DNA of 64,000 bases from Eledone cirrhosa (Eukaryota). This document shows, piece by piece, positions 4,013 through 63,384 of this stretch. Below the pieces are notes generated by a model. That model saw only the letters and a list, made by a program, of their open reading frames with translations. It did no database searches and had not been told where the DNA came from. Location of the stretch: contig OZ024744.1 in assembly GCA_964016885.1 (NCBI GenBank), positions 83,266,001 to 83,330,000 on the forward strand. The letters run 5' to 3'. The first letter of the stretch is position 1; the number at the start of each line of letters is the position of its first letter. A program made the position numbers and the translations under genes.

Positions 4013-4259
4013 TAGAATGAGAAATTAAAGAGGAAATATATATTAATATACATATATATATATTAATAGTGAAAGAGTGAAGAATAACATGGTCGGCTGT
4101 ACAAAAAGGTTTTATTTACAGTATTAAACATTGTTTCATTGATAAGGTGAGTCTAAAGGCCGCTGATCACTCGAAATTGCGTCACTCGACCTTAAATACA
4201 GTATCTGTATCTGGATTACCTAAAACGATAACTTGTTATCCCATATATATATATATATA

Positions 4260-4332
<73 letters not shown>

Positions 4333-4441: not shown

Positions 4442-4486
<45 letters not shown>

Positions 4487-4489
<3 letters not shown>

Positions 4490-5215
4490 TATAAAGTATG
4501 TCCATAGAATCATTTGACAATATATATACACCATTTCCTCTCCCAATTAGCATAATCAACCACACAAAAAAACAATTAAACCAGGTTATAAGATTAAAAG
4601 GCACCTATGAAGAAATAGTGGATAAATAAACGACAGCCATCTATTCGCGGTAAACTGCCATAGAATATTTACCCAACATTTCAATAGAACGTGGAAATCG
4701 ATTAAATATACCGTCAACCATACACAATTAGGAATAAAATTAAAGTTAGAAGAAAAAATGCACATACACATACCAGGGTTTCGTTCGCTTTCGGAAATAT
4801 CCTATCAAGGATAAATTCTCGAGCTTCGAACTCGTCAGGAAACAAACGCACTTGGACAAAGAATTTTCCTAAATGATCCCCGCCAGAAACGAATTCAAAA
4901 TGGCTAAGAACCGTGACGTGGCAGTGGTCAAGTCAGAAAGAATGTGATTGATGCCTACGGCGAGTAGGCCGGTTGCTAGAAAGCGCAGCCCAATATTGCC
5001 AAAATTGCATCTCAACTTTATGGGAGATTATCAAATATAAAGATTTACATATACACAAACTAGACAAAGTCACAGATATATATGTTTTAGCAAGCATTCA
5101 CGATGTGGCTCAATGATGAATTAATAAATTAAATAATCAGAGCAATATACTATAAAGTATGTCCATAGAATCATTTGATAATATATATACACCATTTCCT
5201 CTCCCAATTAGCATA
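4487..5215 (-). mobile_element. HHR-containing element with 68-bp terminal direct repeats (retrozyme/pLTR-like)
   Basis: 4487-4554 equals 5148-5215 (1 mismatch, period 661 bp); both outer ends abut (TA)n; internal HHR motif at 4771-4843. Confidence 0.7.
4771..4843 (-). ncRNA. Hammerhead motif with extended stem II; proximal stem I unpaired
   Basis: Reverse complement CTGACGA-GTTCG...(hairpin TATCCT/AGGATA)...CGAAC-GAAA-CC-CT-GG-TA. Confidence 0.65.
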
Positions 5216-6322
5216 TATATATATATGAATATATTACCAATATAATAAAGCAGTTTTAATCACAAATCTTCCTTAGCCAGAATTTACTTTAGTGTGTGTT
5301 GATATTATATTTACTAATATTAAAGTAATTTTTATATTACACAAGGTATATACACACAAGACCGCACGCACGCCACAACCCTCTCCCTCGCTCTCACCAC
5401 GCAGACATACACACATCTATATGCCATTATGCAAATACATTGTTCTTTCAGACTCTCTTTCTATTCCTCTCTTCTGGGTCGAAAAACAAAGTACCAGTCC
5501 AACGGCAGTCTATTCGTGTAATTTCTGACCTGGCCCCTTGTGGTGTATCTATCTTTGTTGTCTGTGCTCGTCTAAAATCTCAATCTGTATCAGCACTTGC
5601 TTTTCTCTAAGGAAACGTATGTGATATGGAGAAGTTAGACCTGCATGCATGGGCGATTGCAGGTGTTCTACAAAAAATAACATTGCTGTAACCTGCACTT
5701 TGGAGGGAAATCTTCTAGTTGCAGATACAAACCCGTGTTTAACATTCCCTATGGAATTTTCTTTCATTAAAGAGACAGGATACAACCTTAAACCTTTCTT
5801 GAGTCCTAAGTTGATCCGCTCAATGCTCAGTTTAAGACTTAGCATAGTAAAAATTCGTTTAGGAATTTTAAAGGAATTTTGTTTGAGATGAAATGGTAAA
5901 GAAATTACCTCAACATGAAGGACTATGGAATAGTATTGATAAGATCAAAATATTGGCAGATCATATGTCAGTATAGTAAGGGTTCAACAAAATGTAAGAG
6001 GTTAACCACATGCTGGTTGTTTAGCCGTTATTTTGAAATATGCTGAAAAAAATCATGACCGGCGTTTTCAAATAAAGTACATGTACCAATTTTGCAACTG
6101 TAATATTTGTGTGTATATGTGGAAAGTGTTTGTGCATTTGTGCGAGATCGTTTGTATGTGTATGTATGTATGTGTGTGCGTGCGTGTGTGTGTATGTATG
6201 TGTGTGTGTGTGTTCGTGTGAGCGTCTGTGTGTGTCTATGTGTGTGAGCGCAGTTTTCAAGTTTTGACAGTACGTGTATCTTGAGGATATGATTTTAACA
6301 GGTTGTGTTATAAAATTTATCA

Positions 6323-7796: not shown

Positions 7797-7916
7797 GTGT
7801 GTGTGTGTAGTGTAGTGTAGTGTATTGATGTGTAGCATTTAGTTACTGGGGGTTGAGAGATGTAAGTTTCTACGGGTATTTAGGGAGCAGACAGTTAATA
7901 ATAGTAATAGTAATAA

Positions 7917-8102
7917 TTGTTTCTTCTTTTGGCACAAGGCCAGCAATTTACCCCCACTGCATTACTGGTACTTTCTTTTATCGTCCCCGTAAGGAGAAAA
8001 GGCAAAGTTAACCTCGGCGGGATTTGAACTCAGATCGTAAAGGGCCGTAATTCTATACGGTAAATCATGGCGTCTGACGCTTTACGGGCATTGACATCCA
8101 CC
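7917..8102 (-). mobile_element. tRNA-derived Nin/Deu-domain SINE
   Basis: Reverse complement has B box GAGTTCAAATCCC, the Nin core and a GAAACAA(TTA)n tail. Confidence 0.85.
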
Positions 8103-8221
8103 ATAATAACAATATAAGGAGCAGGAACGATGTATCAATACAGCATCATTATGTTTATTCACGTGATGTGACGCACGTTGATGCTTAGTTCTTGTTCCCT
8201 AATTATATTATTATTATTATT

Positions 8222-8388
8222 AGAGGGTCTGCTGCCATGTTTTGCAGTATAGTGTTACGGCCCTTTATGATCTGAGTTCAAATTCCACCGAGGTTAACTT
8301 TGCCTTTCATCCTTACGGGTTCGATAAAATAAAGTACCAGTAATGCACTTGGGTATTTTGGTGGCTTTGTGCCGAAAAGTAGAAACAA
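8222..8388 (+). mobile_element. Nin/Deu SINE, 5'-truncated, in an (ATT)n tract
   Basis: B box GAGTTCAAATTCC, core and tail present. Confidence 0.85.
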
Positions 8389-8413
8389 TTATTATTATTA
8401 TTATTAGACACAA

Positions 8414-8600
8414 GGGCGGTGGATTGGCAGTATCTGTAGAGAGTCGGACGCCATGCTTTCCAGCATAGTTACGTCCCTTTACGATCTGAGTTCAAATCCC
8501 GCCGAGGTTAACTTTGCCCTTTTACCTTACGGGGACGATAAAATAAAGTACCAGTAATGCACTTGGGTAATTGCTGGCTTTGTGCCTCAAGTAGAAACAA
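8414..8600 (+). mobile_element. Nin/Deu SINE, full length
   Basis: A box TGGCAGTATCTG and B box GAGTTCAAATCCC; flanked on both sides by (ATT)nAGACACA (TSD-like); a third head fragment starts at about 8627. Confidence 0.9.
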
Positions 8601-8780
8601 TTATTATTATTATTAGACACACGTTATGGTGGTGGATTGGCAGTATCGGTAGAGGGTCGGATACCTTGTTTGGTGGTTTATCCTTGGGTAGAATTGGTCA
8701 TTCTGCAAAAATAATCATAATGTAGCAGTAACAAAATCACTCGACGTTACACAACTCATCCATCTTTCATGGTGAATCCT

Positions 8781-9493: not shown

Positions 9494-9527
<34 letters not shown>

Positions 9528-9531
<4 letters not shown>

Positions 9532-9720
9532 AACATGTATGACCCCGACGGCAGAATTCAAGCCGTTTCGAAGGGTATTTCTGGACTGAAATAGCCGTCG
9601 AAACGGCTTGAGCTCTGCCGTCGGGGTCATACTTGTTCCTATTTCCCCCTCTACTACCCTAAGTATTGAGTACTCTGGTGCGTTATGGTCCATCTGGTTC
9701 CTTACCACAATTGCTTTGTT
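9528..9720 (+). mobile_element. Family A foldback mini-element (HHR 3' half in both arms)
   Basis: TAGGAACATGTATGACCCCGACGGC...GCCGTCGGGGTCATACTTGTTCCTA plus an ~90-bp tail, in (TA)n. Confidence 0.85.
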
Positions 9721-9799
9721 ATATATATATATATATATTATCATTATTATTATTGTATATATTATATATATATATAAATATATATATATATTATTATTA

Positions 9800-9912: not shown

Positions 9913-10084
9913 TTATTATTATTATTATATATATATATATAGTTGTAGTGCACCTGAGCACTGTACACAATAATTTCATTATTATTATCATTATTATATA
10001 TATATATATATATAGATAGATATGCATATATATATATGTATAGATACATATATATATAAGCATATACATATGCATATATATATA

Positions 10085-10280
10085 TAGGAAAAGCTTAACC
10101 CCGACGGCAGAGCTCAAGCCGTTTCGACGGCTATTTCTGGACACCAGTCCAGAAATAGCCGTCGTAACGGCTTGAGCCGTCGAGGTTAGACTTTTTCCCT
10201 ATTACCCAATTTACTATTCTAAGTATTGAGTACTCTCGTGCGTTATGGTCCATCTGGTTCCTTGCCACACCTCCTTCGTT
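10085..10280 (+). mobile_element. Family A foldback mini-element
   Basis: Same architecture as 9528; centre CTGGACACCAGTCCAG. Confidence 0.85.
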
Positions 10281-10323
10281 ATATATATATATATATATAT
10301 ATATTCAAGTAAGAATATTTTCG

Positions 10324-10378
<55 letters not shown>

Positions 10379-10595
10379 TATGTATATGTATATATACATA
10401 AATATATATGTTTGTGCGTATATATATATATATATATATAAAGGATTGTTGCTCTGAAATAGCGATGTATACAAGATAGTATGTATAGTGTATTTGTATA
10501 ATATACTGTTTGTTTAATTAAACACATTTAGAGGACCGTACGCTATCAGTTTTTAAGTAGTGACTATAACAATTACTTCATATATATATATATTG

Positions 10596-12026: not shown

Positions 12027-12041
12027 TACACATATAAATAA

Positions 12042-12231
12042 TTGTTTCTACTTTTTAGCACAAGGCTAGCAATTACACAGTGCATTACTGGTACTTTATT
12101 TTATCGACCCCCGTAAGGATGAAAGGCAAAGTTAACCTCGGCGGGATTTGAACTCAGCATGGCAAGGGCCGCAACTCTATGCGTCAAAGCATGGCGTCTG
12201 ACCCTCTACCGATACTGCCAATCCACCGCCC
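12042..12231 (-). mobile_element. Nin/Deu SINE, full length
   Basis: Reverse complement starts GGGCGGTGGATTGGCAGTATCGGTAGAG (A box), then B box, core and tail. Confidence 0.9.
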
Positions 12232-12403
12232 TACATATAAATAAGGTATATAAATTCGTGTACAACTCGAGATGAGACGAGTTGCAGACAAGTTTCAGTG
12301 AATGGATAAAATGCCAACTGTGAGCCAACAACTTCAAAACACGTTAATTTCCGCAATTTTTTTTAAAGTGACTCCCTTAAAAGACCTTGTTGAACTCATG
12401 TAT

Positions 12404-13186: not shown

Positions 13187-13242
13187 ACTGCCTGATGAGG
13201 TCATAGCCATTCAATGGCTCTCATCGAAATATATATAGCAGT
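13187..13242 (+). ncRNA. Type I hammerhead ribozyme motif (singleton family)
   Basis: ACTGC-CTGATGA-GGT.AGCCAT.ATGGCT.ATC-GAAA-T-ATAT-A-TA-GCAGT: perfect stem I, canonical core, AUA triplet. Confidence 0.85.
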
Positions 13243-21655: not shown

Positions 21656-21836
21656 ATATATATATTATATATCCATATATATATATATATATATGCATGT
21701 ATTTATGTGTGAGTATGTGTATATAATTATATATATCTACACAAGTATATATTATATATATAATTATAGTATATGAATATAATATGTATATGTATATATA
21801 TATCTATGTAAATATATTTATATATATATATATATA

Positions 21837-21993
21837 TAGGAACAAGTAAGACCCCGACGGCTGAGCTCAAGCCGTTTCGACGGCTAATTCTGCCGTCGGG
21901 GTCTTACTTGTTCCTATTACCCACTCTACTACCCTAAGTATTGAGTACTTTGGTGCGTTATGGTCCACCTGGTTCCTTACCACATTTCCTTCG

Positions 21994-21995
<2 letters not shown>
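21837..21995 (+). mobile_element. Family A foldback mini-element with a central deletion
   Basis: TAGGAACAAGTAAGACCCCGACGGC...GCCGTCGGGGTCTTACTTGTTCCTA plus tail. Confidence 0.85.
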
Positions 21996-22045
<50 letters not shown>

Positions 22046-22054
22046 ATATATATA

Positions 22055-22129
<75 letters not shown>

Positions 22130-24079: not shown

Positions 24080-24134
<55 letters not shown>

Positions 24135-24165
24135 ATGTGTGTGTGCATATATATATATATATATA

Positions 24166-24362
24166 TAGGAACAAGTATGACCCCGACGGTAGAACTCAAG
24201 CCGTTTAAACGGCTATTTCTGTCTGGACAGAAATAGCCGTCGAAACGGCTTGAGCTCTGTCATCGGGGTCATACTTGTTCCTATTACCCACTCTACTACA
24301 CTAAGTATTGAGTACTTTGGTGCGTTACGGTCCATCTGGTTCCTTACCACAATTCCTTCGTT
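24166..24362 (+). mobile_element. Family A foldback mini-element
   Basis: Same architecture; centre TTTCTGTCTGGACAGAAA. Confidence 0.85.
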
Positions 24363-24376
24363 TTATATATATTTAT

Positions 24377-27376: not shown

Positions 27377-27484
<108 letters not shown>

Positions 27485-27510
27485 TGTGTGTGTGTGTGCA
27501 TATATATATA

Positions 27511-27619
27511 TAGGAACAAGTATGACCCCGACGGCAGAGCTCAAGCCATTTAAACGGCTATTTCTTGACTCAGAAATAGCCGTCGAAACGGCCTGTGCTC
27601 TGCCGTCGGGGTCATACTT

Positions 27620-27624
<5 letters not shown>
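27511..27624. mobile_element. Family A foldback, both arms short
   Basis: Centre TTTCTTGACTCAGAAA; both ends in (TA)n. Confidence 0.85.
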
Positions 27625-27664
<40 letters not shown>

Positions 27665-27702
27665 TACATAAATATGTCCATGTTCAGAATGAGCCCTCAC
27701 TT

Positions 27703-31350: not shown

Positions 31351-31823
31351 GATATTAACAAATGGAAACTATATTTATAAAACCATATTTATTTTATTAT
31401 ACATATTTCAAGGACACCAAGTTAAATTATGGTGTGCTTTCATCAGATAAAATATAATATAGATCAGTTTTATAAATAAATATTGACATACCATTACTGC
31501 TGGAAGCTCCTGGATAGTAGAGTTGTAGCTTTTCAAAAGCTACAACTCCACTATCCGGGAGCTTCCAGCAGTAATGGTTGCATTCTTTAAGGGTATGTCA
31601 ATATTTATTTATAAAACTGATCTATATTATATTTTATCTGATGAAAGCACACCATAATTTAACTTGGTGTCCTTGAAATATGTATAATAAAATAAATATG
31701 GTTTTATAAATATAGTTTCCATTTGTTAATATCGTTTTTACTCCAAATATGTGTTGAGTGCTTTATATCAGTTATAAAAATATTTGCTTGTTGTAACCCA
31801 ACAATTTAAATAGAACTTTTACA
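31349..31823 (+). mobile_element. Family C foldback mini-element
   Basis: Arms 31349-31533 and 31535-31735 (15-bp insert in the right arm) plus tail. Confidence 0.85.
31631..31693 (+). ncRNA. Type I hammerhead ribozyme motif (family C)
   Basis: ATTTTAT-CTGATGA-AAG.ACACCA..TGGTGT.CTT-GAAA-T-ATGT-A-TA-ATAAAAT; perfect 7-bp stem I; mirror copy in the left arm. Confidence 0.85.
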
Positions 31824-49142: not shown

Positions 49143-49246
49143 TACCGCTTTAGAATTAAGGATGAATAATACTCAATATAGTCTATCGAATATATTAAGT
49201 AAACATTGTTTAATATGAGAACAGTAATATTATTAAGAATAACAAG

Positions 49247-49430
49247 GGCGGTAGATTGGCAGTATCTGTAGAGAGTCGGACGCCATGCTTTCCAGCATAG
49301 TTACGTCCCTTTGCGGTCTGAGTTCAAATCCCGCCGAGGTTGACTTTGCCTTTCATCCTTACGGGGTTGATAAAATAAAGTACCAGTAATGTACTGGTTA
49401 ATTGATGGCCTTGTGCCTAAAGTAGAAACA
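49247..49430 (+). mobile_element. Nin/Deu SINE, full length, with an 18-bp TSD
   Basis: TSD ATTATTAAGAATAACAAG at 49229-49246 and 49431-49448; A and B boxes present. Confidence 0.92.
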
Positions 49431-49551
49431 ATTATTAAGAATAACAAGTGTATCACTATACACACTTAAATATATATATTCTTTTATACTCTTTTACCCT
49501 TTTACTTGTTCCATCCATCCGGCTGAGGTCATGCCGGGGCACCGCCCTTGG

Positions 49552-59599: not shown

Positions 59600-59831
59600 G
59601 AATGTATTCATATGAATACATATATGCATGTACGTATGTATATCAAAGTATATATATATTTATTTACAAAAATGTATATATGTTTGTGTGCGTATGAGTA
59701 GAGGTTCGTAAATTTAGTTATATAGATAATTGTTTCCACTATCCTGGTATTTTTTTTCCGCCTTTCGTGAGAATAATATATCATGTAAGTTTATAAAAAC
59801 AACGAATAGATAGTATATATATATATATATA

Positions 59832-59903
<72 letters not shown>

Positions 59904-59907
<4 letters not shown>

Positions 59908-60096
59908 AACGAGTGGGACCCCGTCGGCTGAGCTCAAGCCGTTTCGACAGCTAATTCTGGACTCAGAATTAGCCGTCGAAACGGCTTGAGCTCAACCTTC
60001 GGGGTCCCACTCGTTCCTATTACCCACTCTACTACCCTAAGTATTGAGTACTTTGGTGCGTTATGGTCCACCTGGTTCCTTACCACATATCTTCCG

Positions 60097-60098
<2 letters not shown>
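59904..60098 (+). mobile_element. Family A foldback mini-element
   Basis: Both arms share the private variant ACGAGTGGGACCCC / GGGGTCCCACTCGT. Confidence 0.85.
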
Positions 60099-60134
<36 letters not shown>

Positions 60135-60149
60135 GGAAAAAAATGAAAC

Positions 60150-60250
<101 letters not shown>

Positions 60251-60698
60251 CATATATATATATATATATTTATATATACATACATACGTATATTTCGCTA
60301 AAATATTTACGTATACGCATATTTAAAAAGAACAGATACGTCATTAGTAACTGATGTTGCTTTTTAGCCCACCAAATGATCTAAAATGTCTTGCACAGCG
60401 TTGGCAACCATGATAAAAGCTTTTACTGGCAATAGTCGGCTGAGTTTGGACATCATTTACTTTTGCATGTCGTTTGAGCCTTCCTGCTGATCTACACTCT
60501 TTTCCACATAGATACATACATCAGGTAGACGCGCTCCATCATCTACTTTTCTAAAAAAAAACAAATCATACACAAAACGCCAGCACCAACAGTTTTGCAA
60601 GAGATGTCAACATGAATGGACCTGTTATTTTTATCTAAAAACATTTTTTTCCAATTCCATCTTGCCCGTCCTCTCAATCTATTTTATTTCTCATTCTT

Positions 60699-61430: not shown

Positions 61431-61921
61431 TACATATACATACATATATATATATATATATTTGTATATGTATGCGAATATGAATGTGTGAGTGCATGTA
61501 TATCTCTTTTCCTCTCTTATCATGTTTTATTACTGTATATAAAATTCATTCATATGTGTAATAATTTCGCATACATATCAGTACACACATACGTTTAATT
61601 TGAATTTGAGAAAACATGTTCCTAAGTTATTCAAATTAATATTGCATTGATAAATAACAATCCATAAAATAGAGAACTATAAAATAAGTATTAGGTAGAT
61701 GCGAGTTTAAGCTCCAGCACAATTGTGTTTACAATGATAAACATAGAGATTTAACCATATATATTTTGGTGATTATTCATTTCGTCAACCACTGTTGAAC
61801 TGAACATTGTTACTCATTTAGTCACAAAGCAGGTCGGGTCGAATGTATCCATTTATTTTGACCACTGCTTCAATGACGTTAAACATGTGAACCTTTTGGA
61901 ATATTATTATTAGTCCACAGT

Positions 61922-62112
61922 GGGCGATGGATTGGCAGTGTCGGTAGAGTGTCTGACGCCATGCTTTGCAGCAAAGAGTTAAGGCCCTTTATGGTTTTAA
62001 GTTCAAATCCTGCCGAGGTTAACTTTGCTTTTTTTCATCGTTACGGGGTCAATAAAATAAGTACCAGTAATACACTGAGATAATGGCTGGCCTAGTGCCA
62101 AACGTAGAAACA
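61922..62112 (+). mobile_element. Nin/Deu SINE, full length
   Basis: A box, B box, core; ATTATTAGTCCACAGT repeated on both sides (TSD). Confidence 0.9.
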
Positions 62113-62556
62113 ATTATTAGTCCACAGTTTTCAGACCCCCACCTAATAATATAAATAGGTGAATAAATCTACCGAAACTCTTACAGGTCTGAGTGTTCCC
62201 CATGGCACTACTGCACTTCTGTGACGAACTTTTAGTAGTAAATGTTCACAAAGTGTAAACTCTAATGAATGCATTGTTTTATATTTCTTTCAGAAATACG
62301 GGCCTGAAAATCAACACTGATTCTCCCGTTCACATTCACGTGTTTTTTACCAGCTCCTGGAGCTGGAAATTCTACTATTTTGCTGTTAATTAAATATATT
62401 TCCGTCTAAGCGTAAATGTATCCACCCAGGTTATATTTACCATTCTCACCAACCTTTCAGAAAGTCTTTTTGTAAAGCACATACCTAGAACCCTCACCTT
62501 GCCCCTAAACGATACTTAAAAATAATGACAACAACAACAACAACAACATTGATAAT

Positions 62557-62953
62557 GGTTTCTTATATAGGCACAAGGCCACAATTACCCAGTGCATTAC
62601 TGGTACTTTATTTTATCGACCCCGTAAGGATGAAAGGCAAAGTTAACCTAGGCGGGATTTGAACTCAGAATGGCAAGGGCCGTAACTCTATGCGTCAAAG
62701 CATGGCGTCTGACCCTCTACCGATACTGCCAATCCACCACCTTAATAATGGTTTCTTATATAGGCACAAGGCCAGTAATTTGGGGAGAGGAGAATGTTTA
62801 TTAAATCGATCCCGGTTTGTTACTGGTACTTTACTTTATCGACACCGTTAGGATGAAAGGCAAAATTAACCTGGGAAGGATTTGAACTCAGAACGTAAAG
62901 GACTGTAACTCTATGCTGTGGAGCATGGTAACCGACGCTCTATCGATACTGCC
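62557..62953 (-). mobile_element. Two tandem Nin/Deu SINEs (62557-62741 short-tail, 62750-62953 long-tail)
   Basis: Each has tail, core, B box and A box in antisense; ATAATGGTTTCTTATATAGGCACAAGGCCA is repeated. Confidence 0.9.
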
Positions 62954-63384
62954 ATAATAATAGTAGTAAATCAATAAATAAATATATAAATAGGTAAATA
63001 AATAATGTCCTTTAAAACTGTAAAGCATCCTTGCAATTCTTACAACTTAATTGCTTATAGACGAGTTAGGATACCTAAACACCCAATGTTTTTAATTTTT
63101 AAGTCAGAAATAATAAGTATGATTGGGTGCGTAAAAAGAAAATTGTATTTCATAAATCTGACTGAATAAACTATTTTTAATTAATGGAAACTAAATAATG
63201 CGTACAAATGAATCTATTATCTATCTATTATATAAATATATTATTATTAAAATTTGACATGGTTTGCAACATAAATAAAATACATTGCGGAATTTAATTT
63301 CGAAATCAATTTAGTTATAACATCGAAGCTAAATACACACGCGCACACACACACTTTTTCCATATCTATCTATCTATCTATCTA

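Follow-up and report, generated by a model that had tools for sequence, protein, structure and literature searches.

A partial tandem copy of a dispersed hammerhead repeat family in Eledone cirrhosa with Penelope-like insertion ends

Between positions 4487 and 5215 of a 64,000-nt stretch of the Eledone cirrhosa genome (contig OZ024744.1, positions 83,266,001 to 83,330,000; hereafter the window), an element with a hammerhead-like motif begins and ends with the same sequence. A first-pass annotation regarded it as a candidate retrozyme, reverse-transcribed as a 1.1-mer from a circular RNA of about 661 nt or from a tandem template of the pseudo-LTR (pLTR) type. This raises the question of what kind of element the locus represents, how it reached its site and which form its RNA template may have had.

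Layout of the window copy and its repeat family

The two ends of the element, 4487-4554 and 5148-5215, are direct repeats of 68 nt with a single mismatch (C4518/T5179) and a spacing of 661 nt. On the left they abut a (TA)21 microsatellite (4447-4488); the (TA)n tract on the right (5213-5226) is shorter, about (TA)6, and here target and element share a TA microhomology. The hammerhead core (4838-4832) lies outside the repeated part. The repeat, its (TA)n flanks and the place of the core had been annotated correctly. The hammerhead-sense strand is the minus strand, and with this strand taken as sense the left end on the plus strand is the 3' end. Positions 4487-5147 (minus strand) represent one full unit with a GC content of 35.6%, while positions 5148-5215 (minus strand) are the start, in plus coordinates, of a second, 5'-truncated head-to-tail unit, which gives the copy a pseudo-LTR-like terminal redundancy.

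The locus belongs to a family that is dispersed through the microsatellite-rich, 3.0-Gb genome. A first look with the unit interior returned 4555 candidates, 40 of which were scored and found to be 85-92% identical. Individual copies consist of units of about 678 nt joined head-to-tail as partial tandems, and they span from 21 nt to about 2.5 units; unit-to-unit junctions are exact and single arms reach 2-2.5 units. The supposed monomer of about 661 nt thus holds as the repeat spacing of this copy, which is its length after a deletion (~681 nt before it), and not as the unit length of the family. The unit is non-coding, without an open reading frame (ORF) of 100 amino acids, and its terminal repeat is a partial unit of variable length and no true LTR. 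A match to a protein of Penelope-like elements (PLEs) was not found within the window. At least two sister families (L197 1275-2494; L203-L231; L306-L320) are 72-79% identical to the unit and have the same two fixed ends as described below; a 19-mer common to the sister families has 4391 exact matches in the genome. In one two-armed insertion of a sister family (L302 5617 to L305 6027; G000:C1:92985616-93016026), one arm is an array of ~30 kb with about 45 units in a higher-order repeat pattern, and the seven units compared diverge by 0-6%.

Paralogues contain the same unit-to-unit junction as the copy at 5148-5215 with other overlap lengths. Because the overlap differs in length elsewhere, the 68 nt are the start of a second unit and no target-site duplication. 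An explanation by DNA-level spread (as a satellite or by rolling-circle DNA), or by a local or target-site duplication of 68 bp round an unrelated insert, is largely refuted, and we consider it very improbable. The 68-mer is part of the mobile unit, the ends of the copies are polar, with one side fixed and the other truncated, and the stops cluster at a predicted RNA cut site (see below). The sister array with its higher-order repeats is the one observation in favour of such spread, and it indicates that DNA-level amplification happens after insertion.

The metazoan non-LTR retrozymes, as described in PMC7229834 and 10.64898/2026.07.22.740005, resemble the family in that their units are non-coding, follow each other head-to-tail and each contain a single type I hammerhead, in a GC content below 45% and in the occurrence as dispersed monomers and partial tandems. 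Judged at the level of sequence, the family displays the features given for non-LTR retrozymes in the account of PMC7229834. Its unit length falls inside the range of 51-972 bp of Li, Clavereau and Pollet 2026 (10.64898/2026.07.22.740005) and exceeds the 150-450 bp described as typical of metazoan non-LTR retrozymes. Unlike those described, it carries a branched insert of about 40 nt in stem II, and the ribozyme of the window copy is deleted. Two fixed ends, opposed arms and (TA)n targeting are absent from the retrozyme descriptions in the parts of these two sources available to us. In the literature searched, no description of the ~680-nt family was found. The family is a further member, or clan, of the non-LTR retrozymes, and the paralogues support both the retrozyme identity and the reading of the 1.1-mer as a reverse transcript of more than one unit.

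A broken hammerhead in a family with an intact motif

The motif annotated as a minus-strand hammerhead at 4771-4843 is the remnant of a type I hammerhead (4775-4844, minus strand). It comprises the 5' strand of stem I (4844-4839), the core sequence CUGACGA (4838-4832), the start of stem III, a branched stem II (4831-4783) and the GAAA at 4782-4779. Core, long branched stem II and GAAA had hence been recognised correctly; the motif is not a whole hammerhead. At 4774-4778 (minus strand), 20 nt are deleted. With them went the GUA cut site as well as the 3' sides of both stem III and stem I. The proximal part of stem I, previously noted as not pairing, is indeed unpaired, and this is not a weak stem, since the deletion took its 3' strand together with the cut site. 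In an alignment of 33 units, the deletion sits between CCT microhomologies at about 4775-4777. The 20-mer across the deletion junction occurs once in the genome, which shows that the deletion is private to this copy; a deletion-bearing subfamily was rejected on the same single exact match. An apparent stem III of the form ACC-CU-GGU-A in the window copy is a product of the deletion junction. Folding of the window stretch gave no hammerhead (z -0.49), and a search against Rfam gave no hammerhead match. The window copy is predicted to be unable to self-cleave. Some paralogues carry the motif twice. With its single broken motif, the window locus lies outside the definition of an active non-LTR retrozyme copy given by Li et al.

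In the family, by contrast with this copy, the motif is a complete type I hammerhead, and 54 of 84 units from 75 loci retain an unbroken catalytic core. For two intact copies (L017 and L003), the hammerhead three-way junction is the minimum-energy fold, which is not the case for a third copy (L027). Pair 3 of stem I is U-A in 51, C-G in 18 and U-G in 12 cases. The sister families, in which stem III is palindromic, retain the fold, with double changes at pairs 3 and 5 of stem I and likewise of stem II. Over 112 motifs, 88% of cells are paired compared to 82% in column shuffles, a shuffle that ignores relatedness. None of the 12 core columns has common variants compared to 106 of 653 columns elsewhere, a difference that is not significant on its own. 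The family fold is conserved, with compensatory changes across the sister families; cleavage is a prediction.

Insertion ends and a probable Penelope-like enzyme

To describe the ends, we counted family-reference positions along the plus strand of the window from 4487. Left ends on (TA)n occur at two fixed sites, positions 1 and 563, which are 116 nt apart; exact (TA)n-element junctions were matched 417 times at position 1, the site used by the window copy, and 195 times at position 563. Among 40 loci retrieved with an interior motif, a set that mixes the family with its sister families, 37 left ends were readable, 28 of them at positions 1-6, six at 563 and three elsewhere. The two fixed sites hence hold 34 of 37 readable ends, so start points are not circularly permuted; such permutation had been proposed as a test for reverse transcription round a circle. 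The opposite, inner (5') ends are scattered.

Further end statistics are based on 133 loci, from which we had dropped L072 and L078 (same insertions as L058 and L077), L122 (near-identical to L121) and one further arm end clipped by the edge of its locus. The first 30 loci found with the unit as query were kept out, as this query selects long copies. An opposed arm is present in 54 of the 64 loci anchored at position 563 and has its outer end at positions 1-7 in 45 of 53 cases. Among the 69 loci anchored at position 1, ten have an opposed arm, with the outer end at 563-566 in nine. The window copy is a simple case: it has a single arm with its main fixed 3' end, the likely start of reverse transcription, at 4487 (minus strand), it is tail-less, and it ends 68 nt into the second unit at the TA microhomology. 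The stretch between the two fixed 3' ends (116 nt in the family reference) represents the PLE-type tail and is internal in the window copy (5035-5147, minus strand).

This end geometry matches that described for PLE insertions. A fixed 3' end, an optional tail, 5' truncation, partial tandems, an inverted neighbour and a (TA)n target are all observed in the family, and Craig et al. 2021 (PMC8557442) describe endonuclease-positive (EN+) PLEs as partially tandem and 5'-truncated, with an inverted copy alongside, a tail on one end and (TA)n as the target. Those of the Neptune/Hydra type share with the family pseudo-LTR partial tandems, the inverted neighbour and a hammerhead in the repeat (PMC8557442). 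In contrast to the EN+ PLEs of that account, the family has no ORF and a tail of 116 nt instead of 30-40 bp, and it has no sequence link to a sampled autonomous family. A purified PLE, Poseidon PAc of Anolis (Frangieh et al. 2024, PMC11167929), is reported to cut and extend both target strands and to start cDNA at two internal sites, the interval between which is the tail. PAc and the family would have in common two internal starts that lie downstream of the hammerhead, cutting and extension of both target strands, and AT-rich targets. The non-autonomous Chlamys elements such as MRC1 also form pLTRs and head-to-tail multicopy insertions. They differ from the family in that their 3' sequence recurs in known autonomous partners and in that most Chlamys elements lack canonical hammerheads (PMC8557442); for the family, no such partner was found in the loci sampled. 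It seems likely that the family works like a non-autonomous PLE.

We infer that the window copy is, with high probability, a single-armed, 5'-truncated 1.1-unit copy of the ~680-nt hammerhead family that was written into (TA)n by a Penelope-like enzyme in trans, from a family with mixed templates, and that bears a deletion at the cut site. A Penelope-like reverse transcriptase with a GIY-YIG endonuclease would nick the (TA)n, and the cDNA would begin internally on the RNA, at the fixed site that corresponds to window 4487. It would run on across the hammerhead junction, pass the boundary of the unit and end after 68 nt of the following one, where TA microhomology would serve for joining. In other copies, a second cDNA would probably start from the far side of the break at the site 116 nt away, producing the opposed arms. 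The templates would likely be of two sorts, ribozyme-cut linear RNA and RNA continuous across the cut, either as a ligated circle or as an uncut multimer.

PLE-type ORFs are abundant in the genome, with 10596 GIY-YIG candidates, ORFs of 938 and 1096 amino acids and, in another search, 60773 candidates. An autonomous PLE sharing the unit was not found in 30 GIY-YIG, three longer PLE and 30 Hydra-like loci, and these 63 loci, sampled from tens of thousands of candidates, revealed no pLTR similar to the unit. Likewise, the flanks of the end-anchored loci and of the 40 interior-anchored loci contained no autonomous partner. PLE fragments beside family copies are nested neighbours, separated by (TA)n or on the other strand. 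It is improbable that the unit is a solo pseudo-LTR of an unsampled autonomous PLE and the copies its 5'-truncated remains. PLE insertions are mostly 5'-truncated and retrozymes are described as resembling pLTRs in Xenopus (10.64898/2026.07.22.740005), which would fit such an origin, but one unit leads head-to-tail straight into the next without an intervening ORF, and in no copy does the sense strand run into an ORF.

PLE-type sequences were noted both beside family copies and elsewhere. Truncated ORFs (5'-truncated) adjoin the copies in L010 (after 2636), L023 (after 2044), L058 (after 2499) and L173 (after 744), usually across a short (TA)n, which is missing in L023. In a PLE family represented by L102, L113 and L115, a hammerhead-like motif occurs ~440-520 nt after the GIY-YIG ORF, with U and A replacing C3 and G8 as a compensated core pair. 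In an abundant RT-GIY-YIG element of this genome, which we take to resemble the Hydra type, two 3' ends lie on (TA)n at a distance of about 162 nt, compared to the 116 nt of the family tail. Directly upstream of the window copy, at 4045-4324, this element has left a very small two-armed piece of its 3' end, in which opposed segments (4045-4213 and 4204-4324) match its two 3' ends.

Template form: stops at the predicted cut and read-through

The hammerhead is predicted to cut after family position 298. Of 120 arm passages, 17 have their inner end within the 20 nt up to this point (279-298; background 0.038 per 20 nt, P 3.5e-6), compared to 2 of 103 in the 20 nt that follow. A control that takes microhomology into account predicts 4.4 ends at 279-298; at 287-298 alone, ten ends were observed and 2.3 expected, with two arms ending exactly at 298. 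In the independent interior-anchored set, 3 of 12 arms stop at the predicted cut. An early set of 30 loci had no pile-up at the cut site, which appeared with the 133 loci. Because inner ends accumulate at this site, some templates likely had a ribozyme-made 5' end, i.e. were linear cut RNA. The pile-up could partly reflect a pause of the reverse transcriptase at the folded ribozyme, although such a pause should rather place the stops at the 3' foot of the fold. A second, smaller pile-up of 5' ends comprises eight ends in 9 nt at family position 491-499 (window 4965), just 5' of the promoter-like motifs. In the window, the promoter-like stretch ending at 4965 (4914-4965, minus strand) contains the motif TGACGTGGCA, read on the plus strand; the family has a box here that we take to be CCAAT-like, along with a presumably CRE-like motif. 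This pile-up may mark the transcription start of an internal promoter, which would favour linear transcripts.

Most arm passages (103 of 120) read through the predicted cut site. Of the first 100 junctions listed, 98 are free of deletions of at least 4 nt, compared to 100 of 100 in a control interval. The two deletions and the zero of the control are not distinguishable, and deletions at the cut site as scars of end-to-end template jumps were unsupported, as they do not cluster in end-anchored copies. The read-through templates were continuous across the cut site, as a ligated circle or an uncut multimer.

We give nearly an even chance to the explanation that the read-through arms, including the window copy, were copied round a ligated RNA circle of ~680 nt. 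Such a circle would agree with the read-through junctions and with arms of up to 2-2.5 units, and circles are described for other metazoan retrozymes (PMC7229834). Young tandem units are near-identical with shared private variants, as in L055 (1.2% over 662 nt, three shared private variants). The unpermuted start points speak against a circle, although fixed starts are compatible with it, since PLE reverse transcription is reported to start at two internal sites (PMC11167929). Also in conflict with it are the linear 5' ends at the cut site, perhaps also those at 491-499, and the divergence of tandem units, which at 4.9% are no closer to each other than opposed arms are (4.0%). The ~30-kb sister array, moreover, could supply multimers, as it demonstrates that multimeric sources can arise at the DNA level.

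That circles are not involved and linear RNA alone served, as uncut or partly cut multimers from tandem genomic copies, is a credible alternative that we hold somewhat below an even chance. It would account for the two pile-ups of 5' ends. Stem III is short, palindromic in the sister families, and hammerheads of such a type are described to cut poorly as monomers (PMC4209133). On the other hand, most family copies are shorter than 1.5 units, so that few loci could supply long templates, and the loci fetched contained no long array of the ~680-nt family. The tandem pLTR-type template of the first-pass annotation thus fits as well as the circle, and circle and multimer are not separable here. 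A combination of both forms is plausible but tentative: ribozyme-cut RNA would be the Penelope template, with 14% of arms stopping at the cut, and read-through would arise from copying round a religated circle from two starts 116 nt apart, one on each side of the DNA break.

Segments within one insertion differ by a median of 3.9% compared to 7.7% between insertions, and 24 private variants are shared within insertions. Private variants have no excess of A-to-G editing (88 versus 129 T-to-C, P 0.89). RNA-editing scars were thereby rejected: a raw A-to-G excess (264 versus 274 T-to-C, P 1e-5) was lost when variants were limited to those in one or two loci, which indicates that it came from shared subfamily variants.

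While the window locus is no more than a dead copy, the family is of use because it bears on the role of PLE-associated hammerheads: for PAc, cleavage is reported to have been dispensable in vitro, and RNA-seq reads starting at the cut were absent (PMC11167929), whereas ~14% of arms in the family stop at the predicted cut. The relation of retrozymes to PLEs was proposed in 10.64898/2026.07.22.740005 and, for circles, in PMC4209133, and in the former account it rests so far on co-occurrence and pLTR similarity. Through its insertion ends, a retrozyme clan is linked here to the chemistry of PLEs, and the predicted cut site is identified as a genuine end of templates. What is added is a further clan, a tail of 116 nt and a measured stop at the predicted cut, and no new principle; for tests, the family offers precisely located starts together with a cut site and a tail.

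The window contains other minimal hammerhead-like motifs at 13192 (plus strand), 31446 (minus), 31638 (plus) and 43450 (plus), of which those at 31446 and 31638 form an inverted duplicate. Many copies of two further short dispersed repeat families are scattered over the window, frequently next to (TA)n and as opposed pairs. The first occurs at 2194-2502, 9500-9791, 9992-10439, 21753-22073, 24080-24376, 27405-27675 and 59811-60269, the second at 7900-8660, 12037-12233, 49225-49437 and 61900-62954.
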